From positions 1 to 64,000 of IMG/VR virus record IMGVR_UViG_3300020048_000023: DNA of 64,000 bases; one strand, written 5' to 3'. Source of the stretch: a virus. The notes beneath the pieces are model-generated. The model saw nothing but the letters and a program-made list of their open reading frames with translations. It searched no databases and was not told where the DNA came from. Below are positions 9,637 to 41,224 of this stretch, one piece after another. Within the stretch, counting starts at the first letter, position 1. Each line of letters opens with the position of its first letter. A program made the position numbers and the translations under genes.

Positions 9637-9732
9637 ATGAAAACAGTTACAAGCATATTACGACTACGCCAGCGCAGACAAAGGCTGCTTCAACGCTCAC
9701 AAGCGTCTGGACGAGGTACGACTATGATGTAA
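9637..9732 (+). CDS. Putative attenuator leader peptide 1 (Arg/Leu/Gln-rich) MKTVTSILRLRQRRQRLLQRSQASGRGTTMM
   Basis: Manual translation; followed by terminator and Arg/Leu/Gln tRNAs. Confidence 0.8.
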   Translation: MKTVTSILRLRQRRQRLLQRSQASGRGTTMM

Positions 9733-9766
9733 TGTTTCTTAAAAAATAGAATATTATTTTGTGGAT

Positions 9767-9805
9767 AAACCCCCTAAGGACGCCAAGCGACCGAGGGGGT
9801 TTTTT
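9767..9805 (+). terminator. Intrinsic terminator (attenuator 1)
   Basis: AAACCCCCT...AGGGGGTTT hairpin plus T-tract. Confidence 0.8.
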
Positions 9806-9829
9806 ATTTTACACGTTCTTTAACAATAT

Positions 9830-9903
9830 GGCTCTGTAGCACAACTGGATGGTGCAGTGGTTTCCTAAACCAAAGGTTGCAGGTTCAAATCCTGCCTGAG
9901 TCA
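9830..9903 (+). tRNA. tRNA-Arg(CCT)
   Basis: Cloverleaf; loop TTCCTAA. Confidence 0.85.
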
Positions 9904-9911
9904 CACAATAT

Positions 9912-9990
9912 GCCCTCATATCGGCGGCGCCTTCTAAGCGTTAGTACCGTAACGGATAGGAAGATGTGCGTTCGAATCGCACTGGGGGTA
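9912..9990 (+). tRNA. tRNA-Arg(TCT), rearranged D-arm
   Basis: Acceptor GCCCTCA/TGGGGGT; loop CTTCTAA; T-arm GTGCG-TTCGAAT-CGCAC; no canonical D arm. Confidence 0.65.
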
Positions 9991-9995
9991 CATAT

Positions 9996-10069
9996 GGCAC
10001 TGTAGCTCAATGGATTAGAGCGTAGGTCTACGGAACCTGAGGTTGTGAGTTCGACCCTCACCAGTGTCA
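9996..10069 (+). tRNA. tRNA-Arg(ACG)
   Basis: Cloverleaf; loop CTACGGA. Confidence 0.85.
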
Positions 10070-10076
10070 CTTAAAT

Positions 10077-10155
10077 GCGGGATTAGCCCCCCCAGTCTTC
10101 GGAACTGGCAAGGGTAACGGAGCTGAAAATGTAGGTTCGAATCCTATCTCCCGTA
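10077..10155 (+). tRNA. tRNA-Arg(TCG), rearranged D-arm
   Basis: CCAGT-CTTCGGA-ACTGG arm; T-arm TAGG-TTCGAAT-CCTA; no canonical D arm. Confidence 0.6.
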
Positions 10156-10179
10156 CAAGATATGCAGATGCATATAAAT

Positions 10180-10262
10180 GTCGATGTGGTGAAAGTGGTA
10201 AACACGCATCCTTGAGGTGGATGTGCTCGCAAGGCTTGCTGGTTCGAGTCCAGTCATCGATA
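10180..10262 (+). tRNA. tRNA-Leu(GAG)
   Basis: Loop TTGAGGT; long variable arm. Confidence 0.85.
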
Positions 10263-10267
10263 CAAAT

Positions 10268-10352
10268 GCGGATATGGCGAAACTGGTTAGACGCGCCATC
10301 TTCAGACGGTGGTGGGAGTAATCCCGTGCAGATTCGACTTCTGCTATCCGCA
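10268..10352 (+). tRNA. tRNA-Leu(CAG)
   Basis: Loop TTCAGAC; long variable arm. Confidence 0.85.
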
Positions 10353-10357
10353 CAAAT

Positions 10358-10438
10358 GCCCATATGGTGGAACGGTAGACACCTGCGTTTTAGGTGCGCA
10401 CGCTGAAAAGCATATCAGTTCGAGTCTGATTATGGGTA
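10358..10438 (+). tRNA. tRNA-Leu(TAG)
   Basis: Loop TTTAGGT; long variable arm. Confidence 0.85.
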
Positions 10439-10443
10439 CATAT

Positions 10444-10517
10444 TGTCGTATAGCTCAACTGAATAGAGCGTCGGATTTTGGCTCCGAAGGTTGCTGGTTT
10501 GAACCCAGCTACGACAA
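10444..10517 (+). tRNA. tRNA-Gln(TTG)
   Basis: TCGGA-TTTTGGC-TCCGA. Confidence 0.8.
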
Positions 10518-10522
10518 CAAAT

Positions 10523-10593
10523 ACTTCTCTCGTCTAACGGTAGGATAGCAGATTCTGGCTCTGTTGGTGTTGGTTCGATTCCAATGAGAAGCG
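10523..10593 (+). tRNA. tRNA-Gln(CTG)
   Basis: GCAGA-TTCTGGC-TCTGT. Confidence 0.8.
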
Positions 10594-10671
10594 CAAAAAA
10601 AAAATGTCTTATTGAATAAACTTTTGTGTTTTTGCTAATATTTATAGATATAAACGCAAATATCTATACTT

Positions 10672-11481
10672 ATGGACATAAATTACAAGAACATTTCTAC
10701 GGAAGAATTAACCAACGCGGTTATTAATTCAGACTCATTTACTGATGTATTAAAATTTATGAGTTTGAAAATAAATCCAACCACTCGACGCAATATTGAG
10801 CGTTTAGTTAAGAAAAGAGGTATATCTGTGCAGCATTTTAGCACAGTTCAACGTGTAGTTGATTATAAGAAAAGGTATGATAAAGATAAAATATTACAAG
10901 TTATACCAGAATGCCATACGTTTAAAGATATATTAATTCATTTGGACTTACTACCCATTACGTCTAATTATAACACACTTAAAAAATATTTAGACTTATG
11001 GGGCGTGGATTATACCAGATTAACTAAACGGCTCAAAGCTAAATACGATAAGGAAAACTTAATTAAAGCGATAAGCACGTCGGCTACTTACAACGAAGTA
11101 TTATCAAAATTAGATTTGCAAACGGGAAATTCTATGTATTATACAGTATTAAAACACTGCAAATCGTATGGTATAGATACTTCACATTTAAACTCGGTAA
11201 AACGTAATGAAGCTAAAAAATTAGCCGATATTTTAGTGACAGGCGCTTCTTATAGTCGCAAAGATTTAAAAAAACGCTTATACAAAGAGGGGTTAAAACA
11301 ACCTGTATGCGAATTATGCGGTCAGGATGAATGGTGGTATGGCAAAAAAATGAGTCTTATTCTTGATCATATAAACGGAATTAACAATGACAATAGGATC
11401 GAAAACCTGCGTATAGTTTGCCCTAATTGTGAAGGTACACTGGAAACTCATTGTCGTGGGTATAAGCATTTGGATAAATAA
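10672..11481 (+). CDS. HNH homing endonuclease
   Basis: CELC...LDHINGINNDNRIENLRIVCPNC. Confidence 0.85.
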   Translation: MDINYKNISTEELTNAVINSDSFTDVLKFMSLKINPTTRRNIERLVKKRGISVQHFSTVQRVVDYKKRYDKDKILQVIPECHTFKDILIHLDLLPITSNYNTLKKYLDLWGVDYTRLTKRLKAKYDKENLIKAISTSATYNEVLSKLDLQTGNSMYYTVLKHCKSYGIDTSHLNSVKRNEAKKLADILVTGASYSRKDLKKRLYKEGLKQPVCELCGQDEWWYGKKMSLILDHINGINNDNRIENLRIVCPNCEGTLETHCRGYKHLDK

Positions 11482-15099: not shown

Positions 15100-15435
15100 A
15101 TGGGACAACTTGAACCAAAAGATATGAAGTTCGGCTTAATTGCCGTTGACCGTCGTGAGCTAGACTCCGACCCTAATTCCGAAGCGGTAATACTCCATTT
15201 CTGTGGATACGGTAGCAAACCAACACAACAGGACATTGACCTGTTCTTTAATACTATGGCTACCACCCCAGAATTCGGTGTAATGGACATAATGGAGCAC
15301 ATTGATGTGTATGAAGCCGAAGACAGTATTATCGAACAGTATAGAAACGACCTATTAAACGGAACAATAACCGAAATAAAATTGGAAGACGATGGAAAAA
15401 CTGTTTCTGGTTCTGACGCTGGCGGTACTATGTGA
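15100..15435 (+). CDS. Hypothetical protein
   Basis: ORF in operon. Confidence 0.5.
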   Translation: MGQLEPKDMKFGLIAVDRRELDSDPNSEAVILHFCGYGSKPTQQDIDLFFNTMATTPEFGVMDIMEHIDVYEAEDSIIEQYRNDLLNGTITEIKLEDDGKTVSGSDAGGTM

Positions 15436-15651
15436 GTACTTTTTACGCCCGAGGCTGGACTACGTGGTTGACACAATAAATAATGAAGGTTGGATTGTCT
15501 TATGGTACGGTAAAGGTAGCAGCAGGCAATACACCAAACTTTTTAAGTACACACCCCAAAATTAATTAAAAAAAGTTTGATTTTTTTATCACTGATAATC
15601 AAACACTTAACGAAAATATGAAAAATATTTTCACTTTTTTTTCAAAAATGT

Positions 15652-15682
15652 TTTGCTAATTCGAAAATTATGCATACATTTG
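15652..15682 (+). promoter_or_regulatory. Bacteroidota sigma-70 promoter for leader 2
   Basis: TTTG-N19-TACATTTG. Confidence 0.75.
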
Positions 15683-15726
15683 CAGAACAATTTCAGAAAC
15701 GAAACTATATATAACAAAACGAAGTA

Positions 15727-15849
15727 ATGGAAAACTTGATTTTAGACATAAGCAAAACGAGCCAATTTTATTGGGGCGTGCCAACAACCAATCCAACCAC
15801 AGACGGTGACGGATCAGGAAGGGGTATACTATGTCGAAAGCAAAGTTAA
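15727..15849 (+). CDS. Putative attenuator leader peptide 2 MENLILDISKTSQFYWGVPTTNPTTDGDGSGRGILCRKQS
   Basis: Manual translation; Y/W/G/P/T/D core; terminator follows. Confidence 0.75.
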   Translation: MENLILDISKTSQFYWGVPTTNPTTDGDGSGRGILCRKQS

Positions 15850-15870: not shown

Positions 15871-15907
15871 AAGCCCCGATCTGAAAACAGTTCGGGGTTT
15901 TTTTTTT
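15871..15907 (+). terminator. Intrinsic terminator (attenuator 2)
   Basis: AAGCCCCGATCTG-AAAA-CAGTTCGGGGTTT plus T-tract. Confidence 0.85.
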
Positions 15908-15936
15908 GAAAGTTCTTTGACATTTTGTAATTAGAA

Positions 15937-16713
15937 TTATGAGCCAATCTTAACTGACGCCCATTTTTTACCGTGTAGTATGTCCGATATTATGGACTCG
16001 GAAATAGCATATTTTTTAGCAATATCTTTTTGAAAAAAGTTACGAGTAGCTAAATCACGTTTTATTTCGGCTACGGTATCTGGTGTTAGTTTTTTAACGG
16101 CGTTTCCGCTGGCATAAGTATGCTGGGCGTTTGATCTACGGGTTAAGAATTCTAAATTAGAAGACCTATTATCGGTTTTAATACCGTTAATATGATTAAC
16201 TTCTAAAGTAGGCTCCCAAGACTCTTTTTTGAACGTGATAGCGACTAAACGATGAACTCGAAAGTTTTTACGTTTACGATCATCGCCAGTTAAAGCAAGA
16301 ACAAGGTATGATTGATTGAAATTTTGACGTATCACTTTACCTGTATCATTTTGTTTAACACGACCATAGTTGGAAACAGAATATTTGGAATACCCAGCGA
16401 TAGTCAACCACTCTTCGCCTTTTAATGATTCTCCGTTTAGATTTTTGTAAAAATTTCTGGCGTAGTTATTGTAATCGTTATCAATTTTAAGTTGGTGTGA
16501 TTGGTTAAAATCAACAACAATACGTTCATTAGGTATAAAACCATCTAAATTTCCGTTTTTAACGTCGTCATAATGATCAACGCTTTCAATGTATGGTGAG
16601 CCAAAATTATTACCAATGTAAATGAACTTATCATTCCACCATTGTGCGATTTTTGTTCTACGTGAGGCGCCTAAATAATAGTCGCCATTCACTAACTCTT
16701 GTTTTTTTATCAT
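15937..16713 (-). CDS. NUMOD4/HNH homing endonuclease
   Basis: EEW..I.GY.KYSVSNYGRV; VHRLVA; VNHINGIKTDNRSSNLE. Confidence 0.85.
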   Translation of the reverse strand: MIKKQELVNGDYYLGASRRTKIAQWWNDKFIYIGNNFGSPYIESVDHYDDVKNGNLDGFIPNERIVVDFNQSHQLKIDNDYNNYARNFYKNLNGESLKGEEWLTIAGYSKYSVSNYGRVKQNDTGKVIRQNFNQSYLVLALTGDDRKRKNFRVHRLVAITFKKESWEPTLEVNHINGIKTDNRSSNLEFLTRRSNAQHTYASGNAVKKLTPDTVAEIKRDLATRNFFQKDIAKKYAISESIISDILHGKKWASVKIGS

Positions 16714-17125
16714 AATTCTTTTTATATAAATATGTCGATAGAGAATAAAAGTACGTACATTGCGAATAAAATAAACAGTTCTTAAAAATATTGAAGATTG
16801 AACGTTCGAGAAACGAAGTTGGTAATCGTAGGAATGTAGGATTTATAGTGTCCATCATTTAGAGAGTAACTAACGGCGAGTCTACTGTGACAGGTTGTAT
16901 GATCATCTTTAGCTATCACGGCTAAGCGTGAGTACAGAAAATACAGAATGGCAGATCAGCGGTTTTTGGTGTAACAACACACCTACGCGGCGGAGTTTCG
17001 AGGATAACCCAGATAGAGGAAGGTGATTCAGCCAAAGGTAAACTTCAGAGCTTCGCGAGCTCTGGCATCAAAGTTCTGCGCGGAATGATGATGTTGCTTT
17101 TTCGAACAGGGCTCTGGGTTCTAAT

Positions 17126-17233
17126 GCGGTGATAGTATAATGGTAGTGCGCCTAACCAAATGCAATAGCCATCCGTTTGAAGGGTGGTGAGGCAAAGTAG
17201 TCGGGAAGTAGGGTTCGATTCCCAGATACCGCT
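17126..17233 (+). ncRNA. tRNA-Gly-like RNA with anticodon loop replaced by a long hairpin
   Basis: GCGGT...ACCGC ends, D-arm-like segment, GGGTTCGATTCCC T-arm; no 7-nt anticodon loop. Confidence 0.5.
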
Positions 17234-17242
17234 CAAATTAAT

Positions 17243-17316
17243 GCGAGGATAGCTCAGTTGGTAGAGTGCCCGCCAGTGGGGTGGGAAGGTCATTGGTTCG
17301 AATCCAATTCCCTGCA
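17243..17316 (+). tRNA. tRNA-like gene, possible His(GTG) with non-canonical loop
   Basis: Canonical D and T arms; CCCGC-CAGTGGG-GTGGG (A33). Confidence 0.5.
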
Positions 17317-17770
17317 CAGAATGTTGTTCTTTGAAAGTGTTTTACGCTGGATTGTAACAAATCTATGCTTAATTTGTTACAAGTTTTGTCGCAAATATAG
17401 CATATATTAGTGACAAGAAAATTAACCAAACTCACGCCAGTAATGGCTTGTAGGCGATTAATTCGCCAAAGGGGGTCGGCTAAATCCAGAGGAAATTAGA
17501 GCCATCATTGCTAATGGTCGGAGCCTTCGGGCGCTTGACGACCTTGATGAAACCCAAAACAGTTTAGACGGTTAGCAAGTCTACGACAACGAGGTAGGGG
17601 ATCAGACAGATGTAAGACGAGAAACAAAAGCCTAATTACGAAACATCGAACGACAAGTTCATTGACATATTGGAAGCCAAAAATAGTACCCAGCACCGTG
17701 AGGTAGCTGGATGATGTTTTATGTGCGGATGGTCAGGTTCATCCTGACTATCTTCACACGAAACATAAAT

Positions 17771-17854
17771 GGGTAGGTGGGTGAGTGGTTAATACCGCCA
17801 GTCTGTAAAACTGGTCGCCTTCGGCGTTCGCTGGTTCGAATCCAGCTCTACCCA
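17771..17854 (+). tRNA. tRNA-Tyr(GTA)
   Basis: CCAGT-CTGTAAA-ACTGG; long variable arm. Confidence 0.9.
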
Positions 17855-17888
17855 CAATTTTTTAATTTTTGCGTAGTATTTATGGTAT

Positions 17889-18539
17889 ATGAACCTAAAC
17901 GAAGAGCTTCAGCGCATCAAAGAGATAATGCAAGTGGATGAAATGGCTTATCCCGCCAACTTCAGCTTTGAAGAGTATGGTAATATAAGATCATTCGCTG
18001 GTAAGCTTAGATACGCTCAGGAACGCTTACTCGGTAAGGTTGGCGCTGGCTCAGGTAGAGCCGTATTTCGTGTTGACGACGAAAAGGTGCTAAAAGTAGC
18101 TATGAATGCTAAAGGCGTTGCTCAGAACGAGGCGGAATCCGATTGGGGCGCCCAAGGTTACGATGTTATTGCTAAGGTTTTCGACTCCGACAAAGATGAT
18201 GCTTGGGTTGAAATGGAACTTGCCAAAAAAGTTAATCCGAATAGATTCAAACAGTTAACGGGTGTTAGCTTGGAAGAGGTGGTAACTTGGCTTGGATACA
18301 TTACGGGAAAAGTACTTTACAGACCGCACCAAACGGTACCGAATGATTTGGGTGAAAATGAATTTGCCGAAGATTTAAGAAGCTTTGCTGCGGATTATAA
18401 TTACCCAGTACCAGGTGATTTCGGTAAGATTAATTCTTACGGTGAAGTACTTAGAAACGGTCAGCCTCGAATCGTTTTAGTTGATTTTGGGTTCAATGAT
18501 GCCACGTCTGATATACTAATTCAAACAAAAATTTATTAA
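17889..18539 (+). CDS. Protein-kinase-like fold protein with LNEELxRI leader
   Basis: GAGSGRAVF..VLKVA...N..E...DF...N.Y...VLVDFG. Confidence 0.6.
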   Translation: MNLNEELQRIKEIMQVDEMAYPANFSFEEYGNIRSFAGKLRYAQERLLGKVGAGSGRAVFRVDDEKVLKVAMNAKGVAQNEAESDWGAQGYDVIAKVFDSDKDDAWVEMELAKKVNPNRFKQLTGVSLEEVVTWLGYITGKVLYRPHQTVPNDLGENEFAEDLRSFAADYNYPVPGDFGKINSYGEVLRNGQPRIVLVDFGFNDATSDILIQTKIY

Positions 18540-18541
18540 CT

Positions 18542-18624
18542 GCCGATTTGGGACAGCGCTCGACTCCGCCCGCCTTGTAAGCGGGACGCTAACGCGCACA
18601 CTGGTTGGAATCCAGTAATCGGCT
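18542..18624 (+). tRNA. tRNA-Thr(TGT), atypical long variable region
   Basis: GCCGATT/AATCGGC acceptor; CCCGC-CTTGTAA-GCGGG. Confidence 0.6.
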
Positions 18625-18628
18625 CAAA

Positions 18629-18702
18629 GGGCGTCTGGTCGCAGGTTCGAGTCCTGCCCCGCACCTTCGGGTGAGGGTAGCTCAGTTGGATAGAGCACGC
18701 CC
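18629..18702 (+). ncRNA. Circularly permuted tRNA-like RNA (YrlA-type topology)
   Basis: GGGCGT-[T arm]-[acceptor closed by TTCG]-[D arm]-ACGCCC. Confidence 0.7.
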
Positions 18703-18719
18703 ATCGTATTTAATGTCAG

Positions 18720-18794
18720 GGGCTCAGGGACTGCTTGGGTGGTTGTCTGACTGTCACTCAGAATATCAGACGGGTTCGAATCCCGTTGGGCCCG
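18720..18794 (+). tRNA. tRNA-Asp(GTC)
   Basis: TCTGA-CTGTCAC-TCAGA; G73. Confidence 0.75.
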
Positions 18795-18960
18795 CTAAAG
18801 AATGAAAATGATCGCCTTGGACGGGCTTTGACTATGTGGCGTGCGCACAAAGCATAGTATGGCACCAGAAGATAGGGAGTAATTACCCGAAAATATGGAA
18901 AATAGGAATCATCCTGTTTGGAAGACTCGACTTCTTCATCACTTTCATTCTTTTTTACAC

Positions 18961-19036
18961 GGTTTATTGAGCCCCACGGCGTGGGAACTTGACTGTCACT
19001 CAAGTAGAACGAAGGGTTCGATCCCCTTATAGACCG
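18961..19036 (+). tRNA. tRNA-Asp(GTC)
   Basis: CTTGA-CTGTCAC-TCAAG; G73. Confidence 0.75.
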
Positions 19037-19045
19037 CTAAACTTT

Positions 19046-19216
19046 TGCGATGTAGAGCAAAGGGTCAATTTGGTTGAAGTTGTTTTATATGTTGCAGGTG
19101 AACGTATCAAGATGTACATTAGATACGGAATCCTAACACAGAAGTTAGCAATGGACAAGTTGCACAGCTCGCTGGGGCGCACCCAGAGGTTGAAGGTTCG
19201 AGTCCTTTCATCGCGA
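19046..19216 (+). ncRNA. Initiator-tRNA-like RNA with 108-nt D-loop insertion and 5-nt anticodon loop
   Basis: TGCGATG/CATCGCG; GAGC..GCTC D stem; CTGGG-GCGCA-CCCAG; T arm. Confidence 0.55.
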
Positions 19217-19221
19217 CAAAT

Positions 19222-19329
19222 GGCAATGTAGGCATAAAGTCTGAGCTTAAAGCGGAAGACGTCAGGGGGTCACCATCCCTTGATAGGAATAATGCCGTGG
19301 TTATCTGGGTTCGAGTCCCTTCAATGCCG
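19222..19329 (+). ncRNA. tRNA-like RNA (acceptor plus T arm, aberrant middle)
   Basis: GGCA..TGCC ends; GGGTTCGAGTCCC. Confidence 0.4.
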
Positions 19330-19803
19330 CAACATATCGGACAGTCCGATAAAATGTCCGTTAAATGTCCGCATAATGACTGAGATATCAGTCATTAAAA
19401 AAAATGGCTAAATACAACGTTGGCTGTGTAAGTGATTATTAATTAGGTTACTTGGGTATTTTATATCGAAAAAGCTAATGTATGAGATATCAGTCATTAT
19501 ACGGACAAATGAAATGTCCGCTTAATGTCCGTATAAGGATTCAAATGTTGGTTCCTGTGTTCGATAATGGGGGTTAACGACGAAAATAATAGCCATATCC
19601 GACATTAAGGAAATAACGTGTCGGGTGGCACGACATTAAATTATGGTTATGTCGTGTAAACGTCTGGATAACGACAGTAGCGCGGAAAAACTGTCAATAA
19701 TACAAATGTCACAAACACCTATAAAAGGCGTTTACTGGCGAATGTGACCAAAACTATAATACGGCAGCTGCGGGTCGGAAGTGCCGTAGATTTGGAAATA
19801 TAT

Positions 19804-19879
19804 AGGGTAGTAGAGGAGCTTGGCTTATCTCGCTTGATTTGGGATCAAGAGCACGCGGGTTCAAATCCCGCTTACCCTA
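19804..19879 (+). tRNA. tRNA-Pro(TGG)
   Basis: CTTGA-TTTGGGA-TCAAG. Confidence 0.85.
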
Positions 19880-19885
19880 CAATAT

Positions 19886-19958
19886 AGAGTAGTAGCGCAG
19901 TTGGTAGCGTACTTGCTTCGGGAGCAAGGGGTCGTCGGTTCGAATCCGCCCTATTCTA
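19886..19958 (+). tRNA. tRNA-Pro(CGG)
   Basis: CTTGC-TTCGGGA-GCAAG. Confidence 0.85.
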
Positions 19959-20058
19959 CAGTGTTCACGTAACGTGAACTAATAAAAATAATGTTCACTA
20001 TATTATTTGTTTTTTCGTAATGTTATATATATTTATATTATGAACAAAACAATTAGCT

Positions 20059-20613
20059 ATGAGAACAAAAATAACGAAAGAACTGGAACAGCAAGTTAAA
20101 GATTTAAGATTGCAAAATTTTACTTATAGACAAATTGCTGGTAAAGTTGGGTGTAGTCTTGGTGTAATTGGTTCCATATTAGACGGTACGCATATTGCCT
20201 ATGGAACAAAAGAAAAAAAGCCACCAAAAAAATATGTATATGTGCATAATGCCACCCCAACAGTAAAAAGAATAATATCCTTACGTTTAGGTAATTTTAG
20301 AGGTAGGCAGAAAGACGGCAGTACTGGTCGTAAAAATAGTTATTTATCCACGCAGGCTGTTTTGGATAAAATAGGTAGTAATCCTATTTGTTATTTATCG
20401 GGGCGTAGTTTAGACTTGAATGATCGCAAATCATTTGCTTTAGACCACATAATTCCAGCTACTAAAGGCGGTGATAATTCTTTGGATAATTTAGATATTG
20501 TCCATTCTGACGTAAATAAAGCTAAAAATAATTTATTGAACGAAGAGTTTATTCGGTTATGCTTAGATGTTGTAACGCATAACGGATATGATTGTATTAA
20601 AAGAATAAAGTGA
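20059..20613 (+). CDS. HTH plus HNH endonuclease
   Basis: CYLSG...LDHIIPATKGGDNSLDNL...N..K. Confidence 0.8.
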   Translation: MRTKITKELEQQVKDLRLQNFTYRQIAGKVGCSLGVIGSILDGTHIAYGTKEKKPPKKYVYVHNATPTVKRIISLRLGNFRGRQKDGSTGRKNSYLSTQAVLDKIGSNPICYLSGRSLDLNDRKSFALDHIIPATKGGDNSLDNLDIVHSDVNKAKNNLLNEEFIRLCLDVVTHNGYDCIKRIK

Positions 20614-20738
20614 TATGGTTAAAACGACGATGGCTGGGTAAGGCATATACGTGTCCAAAGCGTAGAATGACCACCAGAGGTTAACCCCCGATGCAATATC
20701 TGGTAACCTTACCCACCATATCACCGAATAAGAAACAC

Positions 20739-20812
20739 AGGCGTGTAGTTCAGCGAGTTAGAATAGCGCTCTCCAAAAGCGAAGGTCGGCGGTTCGAATC
20801 CGTCCACGTCTG
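20739..20812 (+). tRNA. tRNA-Trp(CCA)
   Basis: Loop CTCCAAA. Confidence 0.9.
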
Positions 20813-20930
20813 CAAAATATAATCAGCTGTTCAATTTTTTTGCGTGTTCATTTTAAATGAAAACCGCTCTACGTTATACAAGACTTCTATAATTAACAGT
20901 AAAACAAAGTATTAACTTAAAACAAGTAAA

Positions 20931-21161
20931 ATGGAAATCGTAAGACACTTCGATTGGTTCCCTTCATTTAAGAACCAACTCGACATTATCGACAAGACCA
21001 TAGAAATCAATATAGACAGGGATCAAGTTGAAATAACCTGTGATTGGGACTATGGCTGGGGCGGAAGGGGTACAGAGCATATGTCTATGCCGCTGGCTCA
21101 ACTCAAAGCCTTAATCAAAGAATTGGAAGATTCAGAAACTGCGGCAGTAGTTCAGGGATAG
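20931..21161 (+). CDS. Hypothetical protein (3' end overlaps tRNA-Gly)
   Basis: ORF with A-rich translation start. Confidence 0.5.
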   Translation: MEIVRHFDWFPSFKNQLDIIDKTIEINIDRDQVEITCDWDYGWGGRGTEHMSMPLAQLKALIKELEDSETAAVVQG

Positions 21162-21212
21162 AATATTACCTTCCCAAGGTAAGGGTCGTGGGTTTGAGCC
21201 CCACTTGCCGCT
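21141..21212 (+). tRNA. tRNA-Gly(CCC)
   Basis: TTACC-TTCCCAA-GGTAA. Confidence 0.8.
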
Positions 21213-21264
21213 CAATATGGCTCAAAATCGGAAGGTTATGGGCTTAAATCGGATGATTGGTGAG

Positions 21265-21519
21265 CTACATCGGTGGATTATCGGTAGATTGTGGTTGAGC
21301 TTCAACCCAGTTTTCGGTGATAAGTTCAATAAGGTACTGCACGCCACCTCTTAAATTTGCCGACATATGCGCAAAATTACCAGAGTTTGCACGTTGCAGG
21401 TCACGGTTCATTGCATTAAGAAACATTAAGGCTTCGGCTTTGGACGAAGTTTCTTCTTCTCTGATAGACGTAAGAGCCTTATACATTTGACCTTCTGTTA
21501 GCTTAATAAGTTTTGGCAT
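21265..21519 (-). CDS. Hypothetical protein (IKLTE N-terminal motif)
   Basis: MPKLIKLTEGQ start after TATTTATA motif. Confidence 0.5.
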   Translation of the reverse strand: MPKLIKLTEGQMYKALTSIREEETSSKAEALMFLNAMNRDLQRANSGNFAHMSANLRGGVQYLIELITENWVEAQPQSTDNPPM

Positions 21520-21547
21520 AGCGTTTGTTTTTATATAAATATAGACA

Positions 21548-21686
21548 TGATGCTGTAAGTGATGCTGTAAGTGATGCTCTAAGTGACGCTGTAATGATGG
21601 TGTAAATGATGGTGTAAATGATGGTGTAAATGAGGGAGCAAGTGAGGGAGTAAATGAGGGAATAAGGGAGCAATTGAGGGAGCAAA
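21548..21686. repeat. Degenerate ~12-nt tandem repeat (TGATGCTGTAAG / TGATGGTGTAAA / TGAGGGAGCAAG)
   Basis: About 11 units read directly. Confidence 0.8.
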
Positions 21687-31426: not shown

Positions 31427-31981
31427 ATGTATACGATAAAATATTCTGGCGTTTTTGCGTTTATGGCGCCGTACAGTACTGGCAGGAACACCTATATTAA
31501 AAGCAGGTCTTTCGTTATTCCGTCAACACTCAAAGGTATAGAACGATTTCTATTCCCAGAGCTTTTGAGGGATAAGTCCGTAAAACTGCAAAAAATATCA
31601 CGTTGTAAGTTACAATATGAGAGCATACACAATACTCAGGAAGAAGTAACAAGGTGCTCAGTTAAAAAAAACAAGAACAAAGATATAATACAGGAAAAAT
31701 CGGTCATTACCCGAGGCTTGCTTTATAATGTGTCCTGTTTTATTGCTTTTAAAAACGAGGAAGATGCCAAAAGAGCTTATGCTGAAACAATAAGATTATC
31801 CCGCAAAGAGGATATGTTATTGCCAAAGGAGTTTAATGAATGCAGCGACGAAGAGTTTTCAAATCTGAAAGGTATTGAGTTTGTTGAAACCAACGAAGCA
31901 GACTCACAAGCTATACTGGTAGGAAACAATAGGTACGATGATTACAGTAAAACGTATGGAAGAGTTGTTATCACACGTTAG
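31427..31981 (+). CDS. cas5: Cas5
   Basis: YSGVFAF.P...S..F..PSTL.GI N-terminal motif; context. Confidence 0.7.
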   Translation: MYTIKYSGVFAFMAPYSTGRNTYIKSRSFVIPSTLKGIERFLFPELLRDKSVKLQKISRCKLQYESIHNTQEEVTRCSVKKNKNKDIIQEKSVITRGLLYNVSCFIAFKNEEDAKRAYAETIRLSRKEDMLLPKEFNECSDEEFSNLKGIEFVETNEADSQAILVGNNRYDDYSKTYGRVVITR

Positions 31982-34163
31982 AGCTAAAGGTAGTCCTACT
32001 AATACGTCAGTCTTTCAACATTTGAAAGATACTGCGTATATTATGAACATACTATCACGCCACTTTAAGTTTAATAAGTGGGTGAGTAAAAATGGCGCAT
32101 TATTGCACGACATAGGCAAATGCCACCCAGTATTTCAATCAAGGCTCAGTACACCGTATGACGGCTCCGACCTCTGGATAATACCGTTTAGACACGAAAT
32201 ATCATCCATACTTTTTATCTCGTTATTTAAGCCAAAATACTGGGATATACTTATTGAACTTATTATTGGGCACCATAAATCTGTTTATCTACGGGGCGGA
32301 AATGAAATAGGTAGTAACCATAAGGGGCTACTAACTTTAATAGCCAATAACCCAGACGTATTTGAACGCCACGCTGGAACGGAAGAGGAATGGAATGAGT
32401 GGTCAAAAACAGCTTTATCTATACTTGGCTATCTTAAAATTAAAACTAAGCCTATTAGCTACAGCGAAGCCAGAGCCAACTATGATTACGTTGTATCGTA
32501 TTGTAGAGAAATAAGGAAAACAGGTAAGGGTATATCTAAATGGCGCGGAATACTCAATGCCGCCGACCATATATCATCGCACCTTGATCTATTTAGGGAT
32601 TCATTTGAATCAACTAAAAAAAGTATGTTTGTAAAGCCAGACGTTAGTGTTTATGACAAAATGGCTAATTCCTTATATCCTCTTTCGGTTATAGATATGA
32701 AAAAGGAGAAAAAGCATAAGCATACACTTATTATAGCACCTACTGGGGCTGGTAAAACCCAAGCTCTTCTAAGGTGCGCAACTGGTAGAATATTTTATAT
32801 TCTTCCGTTCCAAGCGGCAATTGACGCTATGTTTAGGCGTTTTAAACACGATCTAACAACAACAAACCCAAACTTGGCTATTTCTATACTTCACTCAAAA
32901 TCGGTACCTATTATAGAAAGAGAGGGTACCGTAGCGGAAGCAGTACTGCGGGATAAAATTGGATGCGGACTGAAAGTAGCAACACCATACCAAATATCAA
33001 AAATACTTGTTGGGTCGTCTGGATTTGAGCAGACCATACTTGATATAAGCGGGCAGGATATAATAATGGATGAAATACACTCCTATAATAGAGAGGCTAA
33101 ATCTTTTATATTAACGCTTATTCGTGTTTTACTGCTATTTAATTGTCGTATACACTTCGGAACCGCCACACTTCCAACGGATTTAAAAAATAAGATCATT
33201 AAAATACTTGGCGGAAAAGATAACGTTGATATAATTGAATTAACGAGCGAGCAGCAAGACACATTTGATAGACATATAATTTATAAAAGAGATAGTTTTA
33301 CTGACTGTCTTCCAACTATAGACGAAGCAGTGGCTAATAAGAAAAAAATCTTGATAGTAGCTAATACTGTAGGCGTTGCCCAAAGAATATATAATGATAT
33401 ACTACAAAGGTATCCACATTATAAGTCGTCGCTACTTCACAGCCGATTCAGACGTAAAGATAGGTCTGTTAAAGAAAACGAATTGTTTGATAATAATGCT
33501 TGGAAGGACGGTGGTATTCTCGTAGCAACACAAGTGGTTGAGGTTAGCCTTGACATTAATTACGATGTATTATTTACCTATTGTGCTCCATTTGACGCAC
33601 TCATACAAAGAGGTGGTCGTATTAATAGAGATAGAAATAGACCCCCAGACCGTATTTGCCCCATATACGTAATAAAGACACGAATGAATCATACTAATCG
33701 GGGTGAAGTTATTAGAACCGAGCTTGGCGGTTATAACGAAGGTATAGTAAATGCCACGTGGAATATTTTAAAAGATGGCGAAATACTAAAAGAATCAAGC
33801 ATACAGGGGATGATTGATGCAATATACCCTAATACAGTGGATGATCAAAACCTTATCACAAACTGTATATTTGACGCAGATGGTAACTGTATTATGCAGA
33901 AGCTAACTAATCAAAAAAACGACATACTCGAACAGATATTCACCCAGTCCAATGATATCTTGATTTTGGAAAGCGACGTGGAAGAATATAGGAGAAATTA
34001 TAAATCCAGAGCCGAACTTGAAATACCAGTGTTCTATCTGTCAAGGCATATAGAGAATGTGCTTATACATAATGAGTTAGGTGAGCTAAAGAAAATGGAC
34101 TGCGGGCTCGAACCGTACATTTTACCCAATGCAAACTACAGCTTTGAACGCGGAATTATTTAA
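31956..34163 (+). CDS. cas3: Cas3 HD nuclease-helicase
   Basis: HL..T, LHDIGK, RHE, HH, AD; APTGAGKT, DEIH, TAT, ATQVVEVSLDI, QRGGRINR. Confidence 0.95.
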   Translation: MEELLSHVRAKGSPTNTSVFQHLKDTAYIMNILSRHFKFNKWVSKNGALLHDIGKCHPVFQSRLSTPYDGSDLWIIPFRHEISSILFISLFKPKYWDILIELIIGHHKSVYLRGGNEIGSNHKGLLTLIANNPDVFERHAGTEEEWNEWSKTALSILGYLKIKTKPISYSEARANYDYVVSYCREIRKTGKGISKWRGILNAADHISSHLDLFRDSFESTKKSMFVKPDVSVYDKMANSLYPLSVIDMKKEKKHKHTLIIAPTGAGKTQALLRCATGRIFYILPFQAAIDAMFRRFKHDLTTTNPNLAISILHSKSVPIIEREGTVAEAVLRDKIGCGLKVATPYQISKILVGSSGFEQTILDISGQDIIMDEIHSYNREAKSFILTLIRVLLLFNCRIHFGTATLPTDLKNKIIKILGGKDNVDIIELTSEQQDTFDRHIIYKRDSFTDCLPTIDEAVANKKKILIVANTVGVAQRIYNDILQRYPHYKSSLLHSRFRRKDRSVKENELFDNNAWKDGGILVATQVVEVSLDINYDVLFTYCAPFDALIQRGGRINRDRNRPPDRICPIYVIKTRMNHTNRGEVIRTELGGYNEGIVNATWNILKDGEILKESSIQGMIDAIYPNTVDDQNLITNCIFDADGNCIMQKLTNQKNDILEQIFTQSNDILILESDVEEYRRNYKSRAELEIPVFYLSRHIENVLIHNELGELKKMDCGLEPYILPNANYSFERGII

Positions 34164-36692: not shown

Positions 36693-36767
36693 ACGTGAAA
36701 TAAGCCATTTTGTTCTTTGACAAATCTGGTGTAGTAAATTAATGTTTAAGGGGTTACACATAGGTAC

Positions 36768-38025
36768 ACTGTGCGTAACCCCATTCTGTAAGGAAATAAC
36801 AACATAATCGGTACATTTCTCTTAAACAATTGTACTGTGCGTAACCCCATTCTGTAAGGAAATAACAACTAACCATCGGGTTCTCCTTACCGTTCCCAAC
36901 TGTGCGTAACCCCATTCTGTAAGGAAATAGTAATACATATGCGGTTGAGTTTGCATTAGTTTTTATTGCGCATAAACCCATTCTGTAAGGAAATAATAAT
37001 CACTGACCAATTACCAGATCAGTCCAGTTAGAGTAACCCCATTCTGTAAGGAAATAACAACGAGTGATTTAAGGTGCCCGCCTCGAATACGACTGTGTGT
37101 AACCTCATTCTGTAAGGAAATAATAATTATGATAATTGAGCAGAGCCAGAGTCTTATACTGTGTGTAATCCCGTTCTGTAAGGAAATAATAAGTAGTAAA
37201 ATAAATGGCGCAATACCTTAAAAACTGCGCGTAACCCCATTCTGTAAGGAAATAATAATACACAAACGAAGGAGTAACCCATAACGTCAACTGTGTGTAA
37301 CCCTATTCTGTAAGGAAATAACAACATCGAAAAGATCAGGCAAATAGAAGCTTCAATTGTGCATAACCCAATTCTGTAAGGAAATAAAAACTTTTCGAAA
37401 GGGTTAAAGGTGTTGAACTATATGTAACCCTATTCTGTAAGGAAATAACAACTACCGACACCCTCGAACAAAGCTATTACCTACTGTGTGTAACCCTATT
37501 CTGTAAGGAAATAACAACTAATCGAAGTTGAACACATAAGCTCTAAAAACTGTGCATAACCCTATTCTGTAAGGAAATAACAACGACGGAATAATAAACC
37601 TCTGGTTGGAAAAACTGTGTGTAGCCCCATTCTGTAAGGAAATAATAATACATCGCAGGTAATCGCATTGCCAACTGTACGTAACCCTATTCTGTAAGGA
37701 AATAAAAATAGTTGTATTTGCACAGCGCCACAACCAGCAATGTGTGTAGCCCCATTCTGTAAGGAAATAACAATCAGAAACTCATTATGCTATGCTTAGC
37801 TAATATAACCTCATTCTGTAAGGAAATAAAAATAAGGAGCAATTCAAGAAGGTTGACTTAGATACGGTGCGTAACCACATTCTGTAAGGAAATAATAATA
37901 TGTACACCAGTGCAGTATCATCAGTGCACTGCGCATAACCCCATTCTGTAAGGAAATAATAATAATCAACACTTTAACCGAAAGATAAAACCATACATAA
38001 CCCTATTCTGTAAGGAAATTAAAAA
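36768..38025. CRISPR. CRISPR array: 20 degenerate 36-nt repeats (consensus ACTGTGYGTAACCCYATTCTGTAAGGAAATAAYAAY), 19 spacers mostly 29-30 nt
   Basis: Repeats at 36768, 36834, 36899, 36965 ... 37990; core TTCTGTAAGGAAAT invariant. Confidence 0.95.
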
Positions 38026-38050
38026 TAATTTAAAGTTTTTTTCACAAAAG

Positions 38051-38082
38051 CTTGTTTTATTCAAATATTATGTCTACATTTG
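38051..38082 (+). promoter_or_regulatory. Bacteroidota sigma-70 promoter for leader 3
   Basis: (C)TTG-N20-TACATTTG. Confidence 0.7.
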
Positions 38083-38123
38083 CAGCACTTTTTGAAACTA
38101 ACAACTATATATAAGAAAATACA

Positions 38124-38249
38124 ATGAAAAAGATCACCTACATAACCAGTTCCAATAACCTTATTCTGAAAGGAAATAACAATAGTTGTTTGGAAGCATC
38201 GTCAGAGGCGTTAGCCACTACGAATGGAATCGGTATGTACGTGAGGTAA
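38124..38249 (+). CDS. Putative attenuator leader peptide 3 MKKITYITSSNNLILKGNNNSCLEASSEALATTNGIGMYVR
   Basis: Manual translation; S/C/L/E/A core; terminator follows. Confidence 0.8.
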   Translation: MKKITYITSSNNLILKGNNNSCLEASSEALATTNGIGMYVR

Positions 38250-38276: not shown

Positions 38277-38305
38277 AGCCCGATTCCAAAAGAGTCGGGT
38301 TTTTT
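38277..38305 (+). terminator. Intrinsic terminator (attenuator 3)
   Basis: AGCCCGATTC-CAAAA-GAGTCGGGTT plus T-tract. Confidence 0.85.
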
Positions 38306-38340
38306 GTTTTTTGTTCTTTGAATGTCTGGAAAAATATTGT

Positions 38341-38481
38341 GTGCGTCGTGGCGGAATTGGTATACGCGCTTGTCAGTGTACCCTACAAGGCAGGAATTGG
38401 GGAAAACAGGTGGACAACGGAAACTGCATTCCGTGGGCTTTATAGATTAAATCCGCGCTGGTTCGAGTCCAGCCGCGCACA
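38341..38481 (+). ncRNA. tRNA-Leu-like RNA with large insertion in the anticodon region
   Basis: GTGCG../..CGCAC ends; TGGCGGAATTGGTATACGC D arm; GCTGGTTCGAGTCCAGC T arm. Confidence 0.55.
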
Positions 38482-38488
38482 CAAACAT

Positions 38489-38564
38489 GGGTCGTTAGCT
38501 TAGTCTGGCTTAAAGCGTCTGCCTTGCAAGCAGAAGAGCAAGGGTTCGAATCCCTTACGATCCA
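38489..38564 (+). tRNA. tRNA-Ala(TGC)
   Basis: Loop CTTGCAA; G3:U70. Confidence 0.85.
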
Positions 38565-38593
38565 CAATACCGTCTGGAAATTCCAGACAAAAT

Positions 38594-38663
38594 GGGTCTG
38601 ATCCCGAAGGTAGGGAGCTTCACTTGCAATGAAGACATTTGGGTTCGATTCCCACAGTATCCA
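38594..38663 (+). tRNA. tRNA-Ala(TGC), divergent
   Basis: CTTCA-CTTGCAA-TGAAG. Confidence 0.6.
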
Positions 38664-38668
38664 CAAAC

Positions 38669-38752
38669 GGTGCGTTATACAAGCGGTTCAAAGTAGGCAG
38701 CCCTTCAAGCTGTCCCTGTAAAGGTTCGTGGGTTCGAATCCCACACGCACTA
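38669..38752 (+). tRNA. tRNA-Glu(TTC) with long variable arm
   Basis: GCAGC-CCTTCAA-GCTGT. Confidence 0.65.
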
Positions 38753-39250
38753 CACTAATAAAAATCGTCTGGAATTTCCAGACAAATTAAAAAAAGAAAG
38801 GAAATATTATGCTAAAAGCACTAAACACGAAAGGATAGAAAACCGAAAAAAAGAGATCGGAAGCCGAGAAGAAAGAAGGCGGCAAAAACACTCTAATAAG
38901 TTCATTGAAATTTTTAACTTTTTCTTACATTCATACCGCAAAGGAATACTGGATTTCTGCGGTATGGAAGTAAAAGTCACGTACAACGTGAACGGTAAAG
39001 ATGGTATGGTGTCTTTCAAAGAATACGAAAACGGTGTTATGAAGCTGTATAATTTAAGCACGCGGCACCCAAATATATTGAAAGGGGTTATTATCGGTAA
39101 AAAAAGCTGGGGTCTTTGGTTACAGGAATGGACTGACGGAATATCTGAGGGGTCATTCACAACCAGAGAAATCATATCTCAGTTCGATGGTATAAAAATA
39201 CCTGAATCGCTAATGACGGACTTTTATAACGTGTTACATAAAAAAATAAT

Positions 39251-39322
39251 GGCGCGTTCGTCTAGGGGTTAGGACGTTTGGTTTTCAGCCAAAAGACAGG
39301 GGTTCGATTCCCCTATGCGCTA
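39251..39322 (+). tRNA. tRNA-Glu(TTC)
   Basis: TTTGG-TTTTCAG-CCAAA. Confidence 0.85.
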
Positions 39323-39359
39323 CCTTGAATAAAATCGTCTGGATATTCCAGACAAAACT

Positions 39360-39447
39360 GGAAGATGAAACTGGCGTGGGCTGGTCGCGGTCTTGAAAAC
39401 CGAGGGGACGGGTAAAACTGTCTGGTAATCGTGCTATCCTTCTTCCG
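39360..39447 (+). tRNA. tRNA-Ser(TGA), 8/4 fold
   Basis: Loop CTTGAAA; 8-bp acceptor; 4-bp T stem; T loop ATCGTGC. Confidence 0.7.
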
Positions 39448-39499
39448 CTTAGCCGAAACAACTGCGAATATATAAATAAGCGGTTGTTTTGGACAAAAT

Positions 39500-39585
39500 G
39501 GGGCTGTGCTGTAACTGGTAGCCAAGACGGACTTAAAATCCGTTGTGCCGTAAGGCACGTGTGGGTTCGAATCCCACCAGCCCTA
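39500..39585 (+). tRNA. tRNA-Leu(TAA)
   Basis: ACGGA-CTTAAAA-TCCGT. Confidence 0.9.
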
Positions 39586-39593
39586 CAATAATT

Positions 39594-39679
39594 GGAAGCG
39601 TGGGAGAGTGGTTTAATCCACCAACTTGGAAAGTTGGCAGCCTCGCAAGGGCTCGTAGATTCGAATTCTACCGTTTCCG
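39594..39679 (+). tRNA. tRNA-Ser(GGA)
   Basis: CCAAC-TTGGAAA-GTTGG. Confidence 0.85.
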
Positions 39680-40363
39680 CTAATAGTTCTTTGACATTTT
39701 TATGTTAATAATATTAATAATAATTTGTAGGTATTTGTTGGCTCTATCTGGTTTAAAGTATTTCAAACCAGAAGCATCAACAATACACATTTCAATACCG
39801 CGTTCGATACACGCTTGAAATTTACGTGTATCGTTATTTTGAATTTGAGATAGTTTATCGGTTCCGTAAATGGGCTCATAATGAAATATACCATTCAATT
39901 CAAAAGCCAGTTTAAGTGACGGTATGTAAATATCCAATTCGGAGTTGATTGCGTCTTTTTTGTTGTAGTGTATTTCTAATAACGGAAATTGAATGGGTAA
40001 TTCCTGTTCCAGATAAATTTCGAGTTTTGAACGCCTGTTACCAGTTGTTTTATGCGTATTGTTATACGTAGCCGCGCAGGATTTAGTGCAGAAATCGTTT
40101 CCTTTAGTTGATTTTTGCTGCGAAAGTAGTTTACTAAAATTTTTACCGCAATTAGCACACGTGGTTTGTTTTCTGGTTCTTTCGTATACACCCCAGCATT
40201 TCATTGAGCAAAAATCACCAATATCTAATTTATTAGGATTAAAAACGTCTTGTATTCTCTTTTTAGTTAAATAAAAAGTTTTTTCACATTGTTTACATTG
40301 GCACGGAAGCTTATCATATGATTTTGCCGTACTAAATTCTAATTCGTTAAATAGCGCTTTCAT
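39680..40363 (-). CDS. Zn-finger plus PD-(D/E)XK/Vsr-like endonuclease (homing-type)
   Basis: CxxC/FCS repeats; ELDIYIP...AFELNG.FHY. Confidence 0.7.
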   Translation of the reverse strand: MKALFNELEFSTAKSYDKLPCQCKQCEKTFYLTKKRIQDVFNPNKLDIGDFCSMKCWGVYERTRKQTTCANCGKNFSKLLSQQKSTKGNDFCTKSCAATYNNTHKTTGNRRSKLEIYLEQELPIQFPLLEIHYNKKDAINSELDIYIPSLKLAFELNGIFHYEPIYGTDKLSQIQNNDTRKFQACIERGIEMCIVDASGLKYFKPDRANKYLQIIINIINIKMSKNY

Positions 40364-40440
40364 TAATTGTTTTATTATAAATAGTCTTTGGCGGAGCAAA
40401 ATTCGTATTTTCGAAAAATAAACTTACCGCTAAATAAATT

Positions 40441-40524
40441 GCCTTAGTGGGGGAATTGGTTATACCCAGCAGTTTCAAAAACTGCCGCGCTTAGCGCATA
40501 CAGATTCGACTTCTGTCTGAGGCA
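40441..40524 (+). tRNA. tRNA-Leu(CAA)
   Basis: GCAGT-TTCAAAA-ACTGC. Confidence 0.85.
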
Positions 40525-40531
40525 CATATAG

Positions 40532-40617
40532 GGAAGGTGAAACCGCCGAGGGGTGGTCGATGCCTGCTAAGCATACGGTACCCGTAAGGGTATGGGAATC
40601 GTGCTCTCCGCCTTCCG
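40532..40617 (+). tRNA. tRNA-Ser(GCT), 8/4 fold
   Basis: Loop CTGCTAA; GGAAGGTG/CGCCTTCC; GGGA-ATCGTGC-TCTC. Confidence 0.75.
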
Positions 40618-40625
40618 CAAAAAAT

Positions 40626-40696
40626 GCCGTCTAAGTCAATTGGGTTGGCGCTGGTCTGCAAAACCAGTTTGGTGAGTCCGATTCTCACAGACGGCT
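40626..40696 (+). tRNA. tRNA-Cys(GCA)
   Basis: CTGGT-CTGCAAA-ACCAG; U73. Confidence 0.75.
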
Positions 40697-40795
40697 CAAA
40701 ATTACCGTTGTAACGGTAACATTTAACAATAAAATTACCTATGGGTAGTTTTAGCTCTAATTCAGAGCTTAATGTTCGCTGTAGCTGGAAATTAC

Positions 40796-41053
40796 TTACT
40801 TTACCTGAGATAGGTAAATAGTGTTATTTGAAAGGTTGACAGTCGTATCATTGTAGGATATGAGCGATACGCGGGCTTGTTTGTTTGGTCGGTATTCAAA
40901 TTTACCGTCCATGTCTGTATATACTGTATTTCCATCCACCTTAACGGCAACGCCGCATAGTGTTTCGTGAGTTATTGCGTCTTTTACCTGATAGGTTTTA
41001 GGTGTGGAGAATAGTTGCAAGATGAATGCGAAAATAACGAATGTCTTTACCAT
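40796..41053 (-). CDS. Small secreted CarboxypepD_reg-like domain protein
   Basis: VKDAITHETL.GV.V...YTDMDGKF...ISY. Confidence 0.6.
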   Translation of the reverse strand: MVKTFVIFAFILQLFSTPKTYQVKDAITHETLCGVAVKVDGNTVYTDMDGKFEYRPNKQARVSLISYNDTTVNLSNNTIYLSQVK

Positions 41054-41139
41054 ACTTAATGTTTTAAAATAAGTATGAGTTGAATTAAAGAAAGTCTAAC
41101 TTACAGATTAAGTTACTGTTACCTACAGGTTAAATAATT

Positions 41140-41224
41140 GGAAGATTGACCGAGTGGAAAGGTACCCGCCTCGAAAGCGGTGGTCGGGGTAATTCCCGCG
41201 CAGTTTCGATCACTGCATCTTCCG
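41140..41224 (+). tRNA. tRNA-Ser(CGA)
   Basis: Loop CTCGAAA; long variable arm; G73. Confidence 0.75.

Follow-up and report, generated by a model that had tools for sequence, protein, structure and literature searches.

Three amino-acid-sorted tRNA arrays of a Bacteroidota-type phage lie behind cassettes that probably act as multivalent leader-peptide attenuators

In the phage genome recorded in IMG/VR as IMGVR_UViG_3300020048_000023, all tRNA genes are grouped into three arrays sorted by amino acid, and each array is placed behind one copy of a cassette whose short open reading frame (ORF) is rich in codons for the amino acids of the tRNAs that follow. We suggest, with a probability of roughly 0.75, that these cassettes are multivalent ribosome-mediated (leader-peptide) transcription attenuators, each of them gating its own tRNA array and thereby exerting negative feedback on the tRNA supply. 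The stretch that was analysed, referred to here as the window, comprises the first 64 kb of a single contig of 160,910 bp from a Bacteroidota-type phage.

The order of elements is the same in the three cassettes: a promoter, the motif ACTATATATWA, a short ORF, an intrinsic terminator, a boxA element and the first tRNA or tRNA-like unit, all on the + strand. The first-pass annotation of this DNA had described such a threefold cassette (motif, leader ORFs starting at 9637, 15727 and 38124, antiterminator, terminator, boxA-like sequence and tRNAs), and all these elements were found again at their places. Leader ORF 1 (9637-9732) has 31 codons and a stop, and its core (codons 8-22, 9658-9702) specifies Arg, Leu or Gln at 14 of 15 positions. 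Leader ORF 2 (15727-15849; 40 codons and a stop) has a core at codons 15-31 (15769-15819) with Tyr, Trp, Gly, Pro, Thr or Asp at 14 of 17, and leader ORF 3 (38124-38249; 41 codons and a stop) contains the core SCLEASSEALA (codons 21-31, 38184-38216), in which all 11 residues are Ser, Cys, Leu, Glu or Ala. Codons 11-20 of leader 3 are an in-frame insert resembling a CRISPR (clustered regularly interspaced short palindromic repeats) repeat (38154-38193), which is absent from the relatives.

The terminator lies in each case between the leader and the tRNAs, as expected of an attenuator, and there is no space for a promoter after it. All three hairpins are G+C-rich: terminator 1 (9770-9810) consists of a hairpin at 9770-9799 and a U run at 9800-9810 (RNAfold -21.7 kcal/mol), terminator 2 (15873-15908) of a hairpin at 15873-15898 and a U run (-20.9 kcal/mol), and terminator 3 (38277-38312), which was also listed by a simple terminator scan, of a hairpin at 38277-38301 and a U run (-16.5 kcal/mol). 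In cassettes 1 and 3 only about 20-25 nucleotides (nt), filled by boxA, part the U run from the first tRNA unit, and these arrays could therefore be expressed by read-through alone.

Bacteroidota-type promoters (TTTG, about 20 nt, TAnnTTTG) were matched 25 times against 3.7 expected, nearly all of them on the + strand and before genes. The earlier claim that each cassette has one holds for all three (9327-9357, 15652-15682 and 38051-38082, the last with the -7 box TACATTTG at 38075-38082), but that of cassette 1 stands 280 nt upstream of leader 1 with a 66-codon ORF (9386-9585) in between. In the related locus L248 an identical promoter sequence directly abuts leader 1. No canonical promoter of this type was found inside arrays 1 and 3, nor between 15682 and 22662. 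The motif ACTATATATWA occurs only four times in the genome, and three of the copies sit 7-11 nt upstream of the leader ATGs (9619-9629, in the 5' untranslated region of cassette 1; 15704-15714; 38104-38114). The fourth copy (ACTATATATAA), at genome position 160003 and thus outside the window, has a promoter-like box upstream and no leader, terminator or tRNA behind it.

ARAGORN called 28 tRNA genes in the whole genome, every one of them on the + strand and within 9830-41225, with none in the remaining 120 kb; two further tRNAs, at 23030 and 38594, came from Rfam. The phage has no tRNAs for Asn, Ile, Lys, Met, Phe or Val. Array 1 (9830-10594) serves Arg, Leu (CTN) and Gln, in the order Arg CCT, an odd unit with a UCU loop, Arg ACG, an odd unit with a UCG loop, Leu GAG, Leu CAG, Leu TAG, Gln TTG and Gln CTG. 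Array 2 (17125-21999, called tRNAs from 17243), with ORFs interspersed, holds an odd unit, His, Tyr, Thr TGT, two Asp, Pro TGG, Pro CGG, Trp, Gly CCC, Gly TCC and Gly GCC. Array 3 (38336-41225, called tRNAs from 38489) is devoted to Ala, Glu, Leu (TTR), Ser and Cys and is composed of an odd unit, two Ala TGC, two Glu TTC, an odd unit with a UGA loop, Leu TAA, Ser GGA, Leu CAA, an odd unit with a GCU loop, Cys GCA and Ser CGA.

The odd units are non-canonical tRNA-like sequences missed by ARAGORN and Rfam, in which a T arm or acceptor pairing is present; in some of them the D arm is indistinct and the variable region long, and in others the T-arm region is unusual. Clean 7-nt anticodon loops that fit the place in the array are found among the Arg genes (UCU at 9905-9995, UCG at 10071-10179) and among the Ser/Leu genes (UGA at about 39360-39445, GCU at about 40530-40620), and further odd units lie at 17125-17240, 18626-18700, 19046-19217 and 38336-38488. 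At the matching positions the relatives have canonical tRNAs with UCU, UCG, UGA and GCU anticodons, and L247 in its turn carries an odd CCU unit where the window has the canonical Arg CCT. When the odd units are counted, most core codons left unmatched by the called tRNAs gain a cognate, namely AGA in leader 1 and AGT and TCA in leader 3.

The correspondence between leaders and arrays is far beyond chance. In the best window of 11 codons, the amino acids of the leader's own array occupy 11, 10 and 11 positions for leaders 1, 2 and 3, respectively, whereas those of the other arrays score 3-5, so that the leader-by-array matrix is diagonal. An enrichment check of this kind had been proposed with the first-pass annotation, and its outcome is clear: among the 585 ATG ORFs of 25-60 codons in the six frames of the whole genome, the single top ORF for each array is the leader adjoining it upstream (3 of 3), and of 39,678 windows taken from long ORFs 0, 3 and 0 equal the observed scores of leaders 1, 2 and 3. 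At the codon level, with wobble allowed, 10, 10 and 8 of 11 codons are read by the tRNAs of the array, a score that is unique among short ORFs for leaders 1 and 2 and is equalled by two other short ORFs for leader 3. That every anticodon finds some codon in the leader means little by itself, since 2-12% of random short ORFs achieve this too, and no argument is built on it.

A match at the level of isoacceptors had also been claimed, and Leu is the only amino acid on which it can be judged. The Leu codons of leader 1 are CTA, CTG and CTT plus one TTA, while leader 3 of the relatives L253 and L258 uses TTA or TTG at all four; the resulting CTN:TTR ratios of 3:1 and 0:4 (one-sided Fisher test, about 0.07), with TTR making up 43% of the Leu codons in the phage genes, are suggestive of such matching. 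In the window itself the core of leader 3 has TTG and TTA, but its inserted segment adds CTT and CTG.

Relatives were collected by scanning metagenomes with the neighbouring protein of 223 amino acids (aa) and by looking up the leader 2 peptide and a protein of 503 aa, which gave six useful loci; a 226-kb contig was walked by exact-protein look-ups. The cassettes are kept in these contigs from other metagenomes, and the design is retained while the core varies in frame and largely within the amino acids of the array. Leader 1 is identical in the window, L247 and L248. Leader 2 was obtained in four variants, with hardly any change in the 5' untranslated region, codons 1-10, the final 110 nt or the terminator. 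The 5' half of its core (15769-15804, compared with L250, L247 and L167) is a hypervariable island of about 36 nt with 3-nt insertions or deletions only, rich in Tyr, Trp, Gly, Thr and Pro, where 10 of 15 residues belong to the amino acids of the array against 30% expected; it resembles a segment by which the sensor could be tuned, or else a hot spot of recombination. The three variants of leader 3 differ in their 3' ends and terminators, and all of them have Ser/Cys/Leu/Glu/Ala cores. In L258 the core is that of the window, with a different 3' end and terminator; in L253 the core is rearranged and its composition unchanged; and the window has 30 nt extra, in frame. The reading frame of the leaders is thus preserved across changes of 3 nt and 30 nt. 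Relatives that possess a leader carry essentially identical sets of amino acids, and the co-variation of leader and array is that seen between the three paralogous cassettes.

In each cassette the ORF has towards its 3' end, just past the core, a segment whose sequence complements the terminator's 5' arm. Antiterminator strand 1 (9703-9717) pairs with the 5' arm and the loop of the terminator (-12.6 kcal/mol), strand 2 (15811-15825) forms a duplex of -14.7 kcal/mol, and strand 3, TGGAATCGG (38225-38233), is the exact complement of CCGATTCCA in the 5' arm of terminator 3 (38280-38288; -15.1 kcal/mol). Out of 500 dinucleotide shuffles of each leader, 13, 29 and 4, respectively, gave a duplex as good, and for the diverged cassette 3 of L253 14 of 500 equalled or beat it; the duplexes of cassettes 1-3 are accordingly stronger than those of the shuffles (Fisher-combined, about 0.001). 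Between the window and L253/L258 the helix of leader 3 is kept with one compensatory change from G-C to A-U and one wobble-compatible change.

The effect of ribosome position was modelled with the RNA masked up to the leading edge of the ribosome, together with a nascent-transcript measure; this treatment replaced equilibrium folding with the upstream RNA left free. In the masked model of cassette 3 the terminator has a probability of 0.00-0.12 while the A site occupies core codons 21-30, and of 0.99 once it has reached codon 31, where the core ends. In the nascent model the 5' arm, for as long as the 3' arm has yet to be synthesised, is paired until codon 23 in cassette 1, just past the core, and until codons 28-29 in cassette 2, three to four codons before the core end, the pairing falling in both from 0.55-0.8 to 0.03-0.04 after the switch point. 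Cassette 3 of L253, modelled likewise, switches two codons before the end of its own core. As modelled, the switch is at or within a few codons of the core end in all cassettes, so that the predicted geometry is that of a trp-type attenuator, in which a stall in the core gives read-through and unhindered translation gives termination.

From the anatomy, the codon statistics, the complementarity and the conservation observed, we infer the following scheme, in which leader translation, the direction of switching, the part played by boxA and the physiological trigger are deduced. Transcription would start at the host-type promoter and a ribosome would translate the short leader ORF. With an ample, charged supply of the tRNAs needed for the core, the ribosome would enter the 3' end of the ORF and cover or melt the antiterminator strand, the terminator would form, and RNA polymerase would stop before the first tRNA. 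Any slow codon in the core would hold the ribosome upstream, leaving the 3' end of the leader free to pair with the 5' arm of the terminator, and the polymerase would read through. It would next meet boxA, which probably confers resistance to Rho and to later terminators, and the whole array would be transcribed. The new tRNAs would relieve the stall and close the gate, forming a negative-feedback loop on decoding capacity that is separate for three amino-acid groups. The signal may be any shortage of charged cognate tRNA, whether caused by the codon demand of the phage, by starvation or by destruction of tRNAs by a host defence, since all would act on one switch. Ribosome-mediated attenuation of the tRNA arrays, as the first-pass annotation proposed it, is supported in part: terminator placement, antiterminator pairing, switch position and conservation speak for it in silico, while the part concerning the trigger derives from context.

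Among the alternatives, the one that survives best, although we consider it improbable, is that the terminators are regulated by a protein or RNA factor, such as one binding ACTATATATWA or an N/Q-like antiterminator, and that the ORFs are incidental. The strict conservation of the 11-nt motif in all cassettes and relatives would agree with it, and the boxA elements suggest by their sequence that the phage makes use of host Nus-type antitermination. GTTCTTTRA is found 1-5 nt past the U run in all three cassettes, at 9815-9823 (10 of 11 positions of the E. coli rrn boxA core), at 15912-15920 (with a second copy at 17326-17334, after tRNA-His) and at 38313-38321 (with another copy at 39686-39694, inside array 3), and GYTCTTTRA has 12 matches in the window against 3.2 expected. 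Being downstream of the terminator, however, boxA cannot act on that terminator, and a factor would leave unexplained the codon composition, the frame kept across insertions and deletions and the placement of the antiterminator inside the ORF just past the core.

The phage element is near the boxA consensus of the rrn operons of E. coli (UGCUCUUUAACA) and B. subtilis (AUGAUCUUUGAAA) (PMC13753749) and, as in rrn-type boxA/Nus antitermination, it heads long untranslated RNA operons, namely the tRNA arrays and the CRISPR-like array preceded by a match at 36712. Unlike in that system, it would be an accessory downstream of the cassette and not a sensor, and its binding of NusB/S10 is putative. Another + strand match lies inside an ORF at 15243; most of the boxA sites are, as predicted from sequence, places where long untranslated RNAs need protection from Rho.

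We give a little less credit still to the idea that the products of the short ORFs are small peptides with a function of their own (leader 1 might give an Arg-rich RNA-binding peptide), that the hairpins are ordinary leaky terminators and that the resemblance to the tRNA sets has another cause. N-type antiterminators carry arginine-rich motifs, and the core of leader 1 is Arg-rich; moreover this leader is identical in three phages and two variants of leader 2 were called as genes by annotation pipelines. Yet each of three peptides with no relationship to one another mirrors the amino acids of its own array but not of the other two, the peptides have no family matches and only near-identical homologues, and the invariant parts of the leaders coincide with RNA pairing partners. 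The cores of leaders 2 and 3 are the least conserved in sequence and nevertheless keep their composition, the opposite of what a folded or binding peptide would show and what a codon sensor predicts.

Direct sensing of tRNAs by the leader RNA, in the manner of a T-box, through codon-anticodon pairing and without translation, is very unlikely. Runs of codons cognate to the downstream tRNAs do adjoin a terminator/antiterminator pair, as in T-box leaders, but here all the codons share a single reading frame bounded by an ATG and a stop, the specifiers are numerous and diverse where a T-box has one, a conserved T-box bulge is absent, and neither T-box nor other riboswitch was matched in the window at the Rfam gathering thresholds, nor in cassette 1 at E values up to 1. 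Chance resemblance of short ORFs in A+T-rich leaders to the arrays, with which the frequent full anticodon coverage among random short ORFs would agree, can be practically dismissed given the first rank among 585 obtained three times, each at the right place, and the composition conserved in diverged relatives.

Several points weigh against the attenuator interpretation itself. Leader translation and regulated read-through are predictions from sequence and folding models. When the whole transcript is folded at equilibrium with the upstream RNA free, the terminator prevails in cassettes 1 and 2 with the ribosome at almost every position, as is to be expected of a kinetic device, and the switch therefore rests on a kinetic, co-transcriptional model; it would also need close coupling of transcription and translation in the host, presumably a member of the Bacteroidota. 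The statement that the leader codons specify the downstream tRNAs stands for amino-acid composition, but codons for His as well as CCG and GGG are missing from leader 2, and a few core codons (Val, Asn, Ser, Arg) are foreign to the array. The pair Thr CGT and Thr GGT (25226-25379, + strand) sits behind another promoter (22662-22693) and terminator (25186-25218), and its control by leader 2 is therefore uncertain. Finally, in the more distant relative L168 (60% protein identity) the homologous array 2 stands behind a promoter and a boxA without leader or terminator, which indicates that the attenuator is dispensable and, among the loci reached, an add-on of a narrow clade. The boxA that precedes this array (L168, 3560-3600) is of the E. 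coli type (GCGCTCTTTGACA).

Searches outside the close relatives added no further cassettes. BLAST of cassettes 1 and 3 against GenBank phages gave generic tRNA matches and no relatives, and DNA-pattern scans of IMG/VR with the motif alone or with promoter and motif gave chance matches only. For the 422-aa protein encoded upstream of cassette 3 no relatives were found in IMG/VR, and leader 3 has no called homologue in the protein collection. The IMG/VR relatives of the 223-aa protein are distant (36-52%) and only L118 among them has tRNAs, with no leader in those stretches upstream of them that were read; in the distant L169 and L232 there is likewise no leader beside the tRNAs. In three RNA libraries from one freshwater sample, contigs of related phages overlap leader 1 (9402-9748) and leader 2 (15210-15823); such contigs show no ends, strand or level and may come from DNA carry-over, and their low cover of the tRNA parts carries no weight as evidence.

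Multivalent attenuation by leader peptides is well established (PMC1183508). The mechanism class is classical and what is new is its target.

Enterobacterial leaders of this type include trpL, hisL, leuL and pheL as well as the multivalent leaders of ilvGMEDA (Ile/Leu/Val) and thr (Thr/Ile). The phage cassettes share with the attenuators of amino-acid operons a short codon-rich leader, mutually exclusive terminator and antiterminator, a decision by ribosome position and several amino acids per leader. In contrast to them, they are phage-borne, have a boxA after the terminator and no sequence relationship, would sense up to 6-7 amino acids in each leader and belong to a host type without Shine-Dalgarno-led initiation. 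Classical attenuators regulate amino-acid biosynthesis or synthetase genes, whereas here tRNA genes stand behind the terminators, a difference that is a novelty and not a structural failure: the product would feed directly on the decoding step that is sensed. The pheST-type attenuator of a synthetase operon is closer in that it controls a component of the translation apparatus and not biosynthesis, but pheST is a protein-coding operon and one amino acid is sensed, while the phage output is the tRNAs themselves. T-box riboswitches also couple the state of specific tRNAs to terminator read-through upstream of translation-related genes; they bind uncharged tRNA directly, with one specifier codon and the T-box bulge and without a ribosome, whereas the phage codons lie in an ORF. 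A full-text literature search turned up no description of an attenuator upstream of tRNA genes.

Phage tRNA arrays are usually seen as constitutive aids to codon usage or as spares against tRNA-targeting defences, and the control of their expression is largely unknown. If our proposal is true, it would be the most direct feedback on decoding capacity known, because the tRNA produced determines the very quantity that is sensed, the speed of codon reading; RNA genes, phages and a phylum in which such attenuators have been little studied would all be added to the range of classical attenuation. With its length of about 200 nt, the element could be used to report tRNA depletion naturally while a cell is infected, or be transplanted to regulate tRNA supply in synthetic systems, and codon swaps give simple predictions for it.

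It is tempting to go further, although this extension is tentative, and to see in the cassettes three decoding sensors, independent of one another, each gauging for its own group of codons whether the infected cell is still able to translate and turning on substitute tRNAs when anticodon nucleases, tRNA-cleaving toxins or starvation responses destroy those of the host or keep them back. The odd tRNA-like units might then escape nucleases and the hypervariable core would be tunable, evolving with the defence repertoire of the host. The destruction of tRNAs as trigger would fit, speculatively, with the nearby genes for RNA repair and quality control. These encode a Ro60/TROVE protein (23690-25129), a 2521-aa protein with a CCA-adding-type (PolyA_pol head) nucleotidyltransferase domain (45801-53366, - strand) and an RlaP-family nucleotidyltransferase (54190-55281).

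A stretch resembling CRISPR repeats (about 25130-25155) follows the TROVE gene. The larger CRISPR-like array (36766-38035) has about 20 repeats of 36 nt with a period of 65-66; it is located downstream of a Cas3 gene (31938-34163) and of the boxA-like element at 36712, and ends just before the promoter of cassette 3. Where the window has these cas genes and the CRISPR-like array, the relatives L253 (1130-2425) and L258 (10001-11296) have an IS605-type TnpB (OrfB) gene upstream of cassette 3.

Genes for HNH homing endonucleases are found in or beside the tRNA arrays at 10672-11481 (+), 15937-16713 (-) and 41180-41872 (+). The second of these separates cassette 2 from array 2 and is absent at the corresponding place in L167. 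Between the tRNAs of array 3 there are unannotated ORFs at 38807-39175 (-) and 39680-40399 (-), and near-identical palindromic hairpins (GTCTGGAA..TTCCAGAC) follow several tRNAs of this array (38566-38590, 38762-38790 and 39335-39358), which may be processing sites or terminators for the opposite strand.

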